DNA from: a virus
Lineage: Duplodnaviria > Caudoviricetes
DNA length: 64,000 nt
IMG/VR virus record: IMGVR_UViG_3300029288_000071
Span: 96,001 to 160,000 of that record
Reading direction: 5' to 3' (one strand)
Shown here: piece after piece, positions 43,652-44,050 of the stretch
Layout of the letters: the number at the start of each line of letters is the position of its first letter
Numbering within the stretch: the stretch's first letter is position 1
Notes under the pieces: generated by a model
The model's input: only the letters and a program-made list of their open reading frames with translations
Database searches by the model: none
What the model was told of the DNA's origin: nothing
Translations under genes and position numbers: made by a program

Positions 43652-44050
43652 TCATATCTTTAAAATTATTTCTCGATCTACTTCTTTTCTGATTTCTTCA
43701 CTAAGAGCTTTAATAAATTCTGCTTCAGTATCAACTCCTGTAAATGTTTGTAATTCTCCAATTTCAACTGTCCACTTTGTTTTTAGTTTTCGTGGTTTAC
43801 TTGCTTTTTCTGTTTTCTTAGCTTCTTCATCTATTTCATATCCTATTTTCTTCATCAAAGCTTTTATTGGATCTTTAATACTTGATGAAATTGACCTTGT
43901 TTTTGCATTACAGTTATATTTGCCACACACATTACAATAACCATCTTTATCAAAATCATGTTTTCCATTAATTAATGTACCATCCCAATCAGGATAAAGA
44001 CAATCAAAAGCTTCTTTAGGATAAATACGCCCATTCTTATTCGGAGTCAT
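43652..44050 (-). CDS. Chimeric mini-protein: prohead-protease fragment + LMKKIGY tag + major capsid fragment
   Basis: NKNGRIYPKE matches this window's protease NENDRIYPKE; PIKALMKKIGY; RKLKTKWTVE..VDTEAEFIKALSEEIRKEVDREI matches the gp23-family RKLKA.WT.E..DAEAEL...LS.EI..EIDRE. Confidence 0.75.
   Translation of the reverse strand: MTPNKNGRIYPKEAFDCLYPDWDGTLINGKHDFDKDGYCNVCGKYNCNAKTRSISSSIKDPIKALMKKIGYEIDEEAKKTEKASKPRKLKTKWTVEIGELQTFTGVDTEAEFIKALSEEIRKEVDREIILKI

Follow-up and report, generated by a model that had tools for sequence, protein, structure and literature searches.

The 132-aa ORF described here is probably a real, fast-evolving and clade-specific mosaic gene, which would have arisen by cassette exchange at repeats that code for a short peptide, referred to below as the handle. 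It came to attention in a preliminary description of the window (the whole stretch of 64,000 nucleotides analysed, bases 96001–160000 of a phage record of 207,030 bp with 29% G+C and of landfill origin), where it was taken for a chimera of a protease scrap, a tag and a capsid fragment. All three components were confirmed, and a zinc-knuckle domain was added to them as a fourth module. Positions below are those of the window unless the genome is named.

The locus and its small genes

The coding strand of nearly all genes in the genome is the minus strand, and the chimera is no exception. It is the last of three tightly coupled small ORFs (ORF77, ORF74 and the chimera), which lie directly downstream of a class II ribonucleotide reductase gene (44460–46463); its neighbours are genes of nucleotide metabolism. 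ORF74 overlaps the start of the chimera by 14 nt. Downstream of the chimera follow a 95-aa ORF (ORF95), a NUMOD3/Vsr-like gene, a 71-aa zinc-ribbon-like ORF and a GIY-YIG gene. A plus-strand ORF of 128 aa (43554–43940) also overlaps the chimera; since its composition, rich in F, L and S, is that expected from the antisense of K/E-rich codons, it was treated as a shadow ORF. A scan for promoters and terminators gave no enrichment above shuffles.

When the source run was re-assembled independently (Logan), the stretch was reproduced exactly. A second landfill study contained identical pieces of the ORFs neighbouring the chimera; the chimera itself was only thinly covered by other runs. In a groundwater run with 80% likeness, the joints were compatible with other cassette contents, which is weak evidence.

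The phage's own gp23 gene (genome 11232–12950, plus strand) is about 128 kb away from the chimera. It and a likely scaffold gene, which together span genome 10269–12950 on the plus strand, are about 90 kb away from gp21 and the ORFs beside it (window 1269–7447, minus strand); the ORFs adjoining gp21 resemble, by their N-terminal sequences, a terminase (3281–4888) and a portal protein (1269–3173). In T4, the head genes for terminase, portal, gp21, scaffold and gp23 are contiguous. Near the head genes is also a 178-aa ORF (8654–9190, minus strand), which showed weak matches to PHROG endolysin families (E 1.6e-6) and whose N-terminus resembles a papain-like or C39-type peptidase.

Among database proteins of similar length, only the chimera itself and one weak match of 98 aa were retrieved, and none had the same architecture. 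Through this weak match, and with the conserved ORF95 as an anchor, three related contigs of one landfill metagenome (L001, L002 and L003) were reached, whose flanks are collinear with the window and 72–90% identical to it. The features of the locus and the arrays of the four genomes are given in Table 1.

Table 1. Coordinates of the features in the window, and arrays of small ORFs in the window and its three relatives (A, gp21 motif; B, gp23 C-terminal block; C, gp23 strand; D, handle; E, gp23 helix; Z, zinc knuckle)
Feature	Position	Strand	Evidence or arrangement
Mosaic ORF (chimera, P0001), 132 aa, stop included	43652-44050	-	ORF list; AF2 mean pLDDT 73.8
ORF77, array gene 1, two handles in tandem	44251-44484	-	ORF list
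ORF74, array gene 2: decayed gp21 motif, then Gp23 C-terminal piece (residues 20-55), then handle	44037-44261	-	
ORF95, 95 aa, conserved downstream anchor gene for locating relatives	43339-43626	-	
Homing-endonuclease-like gene, NUMOD3 + Vsr/DUF559-like	42708-43367	-	Pfam, PHROG matches
GIY-YIG/NUMOD3 homing endonuclease gene	41825-42457	-	Pfam
Own gp21 prohead protease, nearest match to module A	6839-7447	-	PF03420 E 1.7e-28
Module A, gp21 N-terminal motif NKNGRIYPKE, residues 4-13	44012-44041	-	8/10 identical to own gp21
Module Z, CHCC zinc-knuckle domain, residues 15-45	43916-44008	-	~45 cluster representatives, pLDDT ~93
Module D, internal handle DPIKALMKKIGYE, residues 60-72	43835-43873	-	Within predicted helix 47-69 (AF2)
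Modules C+E, Gp23 strand + spine-helix piece, residues 80-132	43655-43813	-	PF07068 E 3.3e-8
Window array			[D D] [A'-B-D] [A-Z-D-C-E]
L001 array			[..B-D] [C-D-E]
L002 array			[D D] [A-B-D] [C-D-E]
L003 array			[D D] [A-C-gap-D-C'-E]

Modules of the chimera

The N-terminus of the chimera, described earlier as a near-copy of a gp21 motif, was indeed found to share eight of ten residues with NENDRIYPKE of the phage's own gp21. In an exhaustive comparison with the 86,692-aa ORF set, this was the sole 10-mer with at least 6/10 identities to the gp21 motif, and the pattern R[ILV]YPK was confined to the chimera and gp21 within the ORF set of the genome. By BLASTP, the match between gp21 and the chimera motif was not significant alone (E 0.5), and the similarity stopped after residue 16. 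At the DNA level, 19 of 23 nt were identical between module A and the gp21 gene (E 0.07). The Peptidase_S77 profile (PF03420) gave no Pfam match in the chimera, and a genome-wide search for the family returned the true gp21 only. Because the chimera has no Peptidase_S77 similarity beyond the motif, it lacks the segments with the catalytic His and Ser, as the preliminary description had held.

The ORFs at the chimera position in L002 and L003 open with the same gp21 motif. The A-B-D protein of L002 (102 aa) matched Peptidase_S77 over residues 3–25 at E 1.5e-3, which is below the cut-off, and it matched Gp23 as well (E 9e-4); the former match supports a protease origin of module A. The N-terminus of ORF74 also aligns with the gp21 motif of L002, in a decayed form. 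Compared with the T4 gp21 serine protease (PF03420), the chimera shares the N-terminal block N.N.R.YPK, of which L002 keeps a stretch of 23 residues, but the remaining fold and the catalytic His and Ser are missing. Hence, the chimera cannot be a protease.

The Cys/His cluster that had been noted behind this motif turned out to be genuine, with C17, H31, C39 and C42 invariant throughout a family of 45 members. When 1.84 billion cluster representatives were searched exhaustively, about 45 of the 61 matches covered only residues 14–50 of the chimera. Y19 and G43 are likewise invariant in the 45 sequences, and P20, D21, W22, G24, D36 and G37 are nearly so. The family pattern is C.YPDWEGG..G.H.FDKDG[YF]C..CG, and the chimera possesses its ligands, the YPDW and the DG. 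Judged by this conservation, the cluster is a fourth, independent domain that belongs to a widespread family of its own, and metal binding is predicted for it. No counterpart of the zinc-knuckle DNA (about 43866–44014) was found in L001, L002 or L003.

The CHCC family (P0003–P0058) comprises at least 45 cluster representatives, mostly stand-alone proteins of 50–130 aa. No Pfam or PHROG model matched it. A Foldseek comparison of the AF2 model of the chimera with the PDB gave nothing below E 1 and, accordingly, no solved relative of the zinc knuckle.

The tag of the preliminary description is real as well: DPIKALMKKIGYE is one of 29 copies of a clade-specific handle, which are spread over 28 ORFs, as counted over the whole genome with the relaxed motif [LIM]M..[IML]GY and its close variants. 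The motif I..LM.K[IM]GY falls on residues 62–71 of the chimera. All 29 handles are on the coding strand, and 22 of the 28 ORFs carry the handle at most 10 residues from the stop. That of the chimera is not C-terminal but internal, with 61 residues after it, and in L001, L002 and L003 it is also internal and precedes the gp23 helix. The consensus is [P/K/E]-I-x-x-L-M-x-K-[IM]-G-Y, with a mean net charge of +1.5. The helical hydrophobic moment is within the top 13% of the 11-mers of the proteome, and the amphipathicity is modest. The copies differ freely in the codons they use for L, I, K, R and G, with the residues unchanged; such synonymous variation points to constraint or selection on the peptide and not on the DNA.

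The strict DNA pattern for LMKKIGY[DE] was found in six viral contigs, two of them from the same landfill sample and the other four seemingly by chance. One of these two landfill contigs (L011, IMGVR_UViG_3300037067_027217) holds eight small handle-ended ORFs within 13 kb, and a handle-like variant was seen in one unrelated run. Among the handle-bearing ORFs of the phage, only the chimera and ORF74 matched large ORFs of the same genome in BLASTP. Therefore, head-protein fragments are not general to ORFs that bear the handle.

The two handles of ORF77 are 8 residues apart, and both are kept in L002 and L003; two handles in one protein would be apt for a linker or for binding with high avidity. 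A handle-ended ORF of 174 aa (55735–56259, minus strand) contains 'PTVPIIDPSFIPRRGIIARYAE', which resembles the C-terminal motif 'TPTIFAPEDFTPRRAVMTRYAK' of the phage's own gp23. This ORF gave the best non-trivial match to the gp23 HMM, ranking fourth of 730 ORFs, yet with E 0.55.

A derivation of the handle from gp23 was also considered. MAFFT and HMMER put the handle of ORF74 on P-R-K-G-V-M-T-R-Y near the gp23 C-terminus, but a handle PSSM left that site outside the top three windows of gp23, and handle peptides scored no better than shuffles against the gp23 HMM. This derivation was not supported.

As an analogy for the handle we take, presumptively, the amphipathic C-terminal targeting peptides, such as the membrane-targeting sequences of MinD and FtsA and the cargo-loading peptides of encapsulins. 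Like these, the handle has about 11 residues, is basic and amphipathic, and is found at the extreme C-terminus of otherwise unrelated proteins. In contrast to them, it has no sequence homology, its moment is only moderately high, and it is internal in the chimera.

The position of the handle between modules bears on a further reading, that the internal handle (..IGY followed by E..) is a cleavage or recoding site which separates or joins the modules. D or E follows 18 of the 29 handles, and in several cases the ATG of the next gene lies within the handle DNA. We nevertheless hold processing to be highly improbable: 11 of the 29 handles have no D or E after the Y, the K codons vary so that no conserved slippery run exists, and the maturation site of the phage's own gp23, which by analogy with T4 would look like L-x-E, does not match the handle.

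For the C-terminal part, the preliminary description had proposed a resemblance to gp23, and the match was found at the profile level. Pfam Gp23 scored 33.8 bits against a cut-off of 24.4, over profile positions 141–194 of 376; the C-terminal 50 aa or so matched PHROG 138 (major head protein) at E 2.6e-8, and an HMM built from the gp23 proteins of the clade matched the chimera at E 2.6e-9. The piece consists of a β-strand, 'RKLK..W', followed by a spine helix, '..EI..E.DREI'. In the AF2 model, the helix (residues 109–131) has a pLDDT of about 84, and the strand is of low confidence. With 53 of the 376 Gp23 profile positions present, the chimera does not hold a full HK97-fold subunit. Compared with the T4-type gp23/gp24 proteins (PF07068, HK97 fold), it lacks the N-arm, the E-loop and the A-domain and thus is no shell subunit; moreover, its gp23 piece is fused to unrelated modules, unlike in true gp23. 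ORF74 carries another part of gp23 (profile positions 299–331), which is 57% identical to residues 499–533 of the phage's own protein and was detected by the gp23 HMM at E 2e-12 and by Pfam at E 2e-4.

The identity of these pieces to the phage itself and to other phages was then compared, as had been proposed. The piece in the chimera is 44.7% identical to residues 319–365 of the phage's own gp23 (47 residues). The comparison set comprised 124 gp23 sequences: the phage's own, 120 relatives that are 63–97% identical to it, and three that are more distant. The best identities in this set were about 45–47% for the middle piece and 55–68% for the C-terminal piece, and the phage's own gp23 ranked 7th and 11th, respectively. 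No donor gp23 close to the fragment was found in a word-based search of longer proteins, and an exhaustive search gave full-length gp23 at 40–46% identity at best. At the DNA level, no similarity to the gp23 gene was found for the middle piece; for the ORF74 piece it was 71% over 79 nt. The residues retained by the mini-ORFs are those of the columns most conserved in gp23 (Spearman 0.79, 15 columns). Being about equally distant from all sampled gp23 proteins, the pieces are neither recent copies of the phage's own gene nor recent imports from any of the phages sampled. As far as sequence identities tell, the head-protein pieces are old captures that retain mainly the family-wide residues of gp23. 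With an identity to the own gp23 of 45–57%, and no closer donor among the 124, they do not behave as duplicate fragments associated with homing endonucleases, which would be nearly identical to part of the interrupted or adjoining target gene and would move together with the endonuclease.

Re-assorted modules and a breakpoint in the handle repeat

The preliminary description had suggested that the same chimera be looked for in relatives. The exact arrangement is unique to this genome, and none of the viral contigs encodes the chimera; what the relatives do have are its modules in re-assorted order (Table 1). All four genomes have in common a handle with the gp23 helix behind it. ORF95 is 72–78% identical in L001–L003 and 53–58% in two further contigs, L006 and L007, and ORF77 is 97% identical in L003 and 70% in L002. 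A first scan of metagenomes with ORF95 returned nothing; a second one returned distant relatives only, all without the array. In L006 (503–871) and L007 (485–745), a small, very hydrophobic (membrane) ORF occupies the slot of the array, with the reductase gene on one side and the ORF95 homologue on the other.

Parts of the chimera were also met with outside this clade. P0036, from an unrelated sample, has a handle-like motif and then the same gp23 block. In P0040 (L005:181–639) and P0061, from other samples, the gp23 C-terminal block is fused to the strand and helix block, so that one chain unites the pieces which are split between ORF74 and the chimera. Further small metagenomic proteins carry the strand and helix block alone. 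In P0043, P0056 and P0059, a twin-arginine-type leader (RR.F[FL]) is joined to the gp23 strand and spine-helix block. As the search was seeded with the gp23 block, all these small proteins show its recurrence and not a preference for it.

Alignment of the relatives placed one breakpoint at the handle. From the reductase gene to the second handle of ORF77 (44258), L003 is 94% identical to the window; it then resumes at 44068–44015, where ORF74 has its handle and the chimera begins. L003 thus lacks the body of ORF74, and its junction falls within the handle repeat. The homology returns at the handle of the chimera (43865) and continues into ORF95 at 80%. In L001, the parts that could be aligned with the window were limited to the handle DNA and to the stretch that begins at the gp23 helix. 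Across the locus, the handle DNA and the flanks of the locus are the only blocks of homology among the relatives, and the zinc-knuckle DNA is bracketed by two conserved anchors, the gp21-motif start and the handle. In the sequences compared, this pattern is that expected from recombination between short direct repeats.

We infer that homologous recombination at handle-coding repeats of about 25–40 nt would swap, delete and fuse cassettes, and that the A-Z-D-C-E order would go back to an older gene, made of a handle and a gp23 fragment, whose N-terminal part gave way to a zinc-knuckle cassette. In the hyperplastic regions of T4-type phages, small variable ORFs are shuffled as modules by PeSL elements (PMC2839356, PMC4122927). 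There as here, short repeats at ORF borders insert, delete or replace cassettes between close relatives. The PeSL, however, is an intergenic promoter and stem-loop, whereas the present repeat is coding, conserved as a peptide and synonymously varied. Because it lies inside coding sequence, recombination at it yields protein fusions in addition to changes of gene content.

The chimera has two homing endonuclease genes within 1.8 kb, and their presence varies: the GIY-YIG gene is present in the window and L001 and absent from L002 and L003, and the NUMOD3/Vsr-like gene is present in the window and L003 and absent from L001 and L002. With such genes adjoining the locus, passive carry-over of fragments is conceivable, and the ORF might be non-functional recombination debris, i.e. 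scraps dragged into a hypervariable slot with a frame that is open by luck or transiently. This is unlikely in our estimation. L002 keeps gp21 and gp23 fragments with no endonuclease adjacent to them, and the presence of the endonucleases varies independently of the fragments; simple carry-over with an endonuclease is therefore unlikely. The singleton architecture and the different gene that distant relatives hold in the slot fit debris, but the recurrence of the same gp23 block in small ORFs of unrelated samples does not, nor does the preferential retention of gp23-family residues at about 45% identity.

The state of the frame also bears on this alternative. At 29% GC, a random codon is a stop with a probability of 0.081, and 132 open codons would be obtained by chance with a probability of 1.5e-5. 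The orthologous ORFs of L001, L002 and L003, which carry the same modules, are all open and overlap at start and stop. Simple pseudogenisation, which the preliminary description had found hard to reconcile with the ORF, is inadequate: the frame is open, the gp23 piece is 44.7% identical to the own protein, and the relatives' ORFs are open and translationally coupled. On the side of debris, selection appeared relaxed. The dN/dS of the alignable parts was 0.55–0.61 for the chimera and 0.41–0.43 for ORF74, compared with 0.09–0.21 for ORF95, 0.10 for ORF71 and 0.09–0.33 for ORF77; the chimera value, from about 70 codons, is weakly below 1, indicating relaxed constraint on short samples. The relatives retain these pieces in other orders, which makes the gene look real and under selection.

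Possible function of the mosaic gene

For a mosaic gene of this kind, a function by handle docking and head-protein mimicry may be considered, which we regard as possible but doubtful. The handle, as a short basic amphipathic helix, would dock some 28 small and probably early proteins to a common partner or surface. The head-protein blocks would mimic conserved surfaces of gp23 and gp21 and so titrate or block the binders of these surfaces. The target of the mimicry could be a host capsid sensor, the assembling head of a competitor phage or the phage's own head assembly. A mimic would be consistent with the setting among nucleotide-metabolism genes, with the rapid change of modules and with the use of blocks that are invariant in their family. 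The fuller version, in which handle-tagged mini-proteins are brought to one site, mimic head surfaces and blunt sensors or sabotage rivals, with recombination diversifying them, seems quite unlikely.

Capsid proteins are known to trigger bacterial immunity directly (PMC9712102; bioRxiv 10.1101/2024.07.29.605636), and the Gol peptide of T4 gp23 triggers the Lit protease (PMC3014915). Gol is a precedent for a short conserved stretch of gp23 with an activity of its own (PMC3014915). It differs from the chimera in three ways: it stems from another part of gp23, it has no gene of its own, and it activates a defence. In one specific form of mimicry, the protein would act as an antagonist or decoy towards an immune sensor of the host, one that detects conserved surfaces of the capsid or the protease. 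Such a decoy is improbable, even though the blocks concerned rank with the best conserved of Gp23 and Peptidase_S77, the evolution is fast and modular, the neighbours are genes of nucleotide metabolism, and capsid proteins, Gol included, are established immune triggers: a free trigger fragment could activate the sensor rather than block it, as Gol does, and the copied region is not that of Gol.

Alternatively, the P-domain pieces may bind assembling capsid protein, either that of a competitor, as interference, or the phage's own, as a control of timing. To judge from the HK97 fold, the gp23 blocks of ORF74 and the chimera would presumably make up the P-domain core; elsewhere (P0040, P0061) a single chain contains both, and a roughly equal distance from all sampled gp23 proteins would mean that only family-wide residues were kept. 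We regard interference with assembly as distinctly improbable; poisoning of the phage's own capsid would be costly. When a complex of ORF74 with residues 73–132 of the chimera was predicted, following the idea of a split mini P-domain, the score was 0.00, with the fold of the partner uncertain, which speaks neither for nor against such a domain.

Nothing relevant on capsid decoys, or on gp23 fragments that accompany homing endonucleases, emerged from searches of the literature, and no paper describing mini-genes of capsid fragments was found. On a cautious reading, the locus presents a peptide-coding repeat as a breakpoint of cassette exchange between near relatives, and it also yields an unannotated zinc-knuckle family. 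If the mosaic gene is functional, large T4-related phages would turn the best-conserved parts of their own structural proteins into small genes that stand apart, and a coding repeat that doubles as protein handle and recombination site would be a new way of gene-making. Such genes may then form a new class of weapons, for counter-defence or for use between phages, that target the recognition of capsids on which several bacterial immune systems rely.
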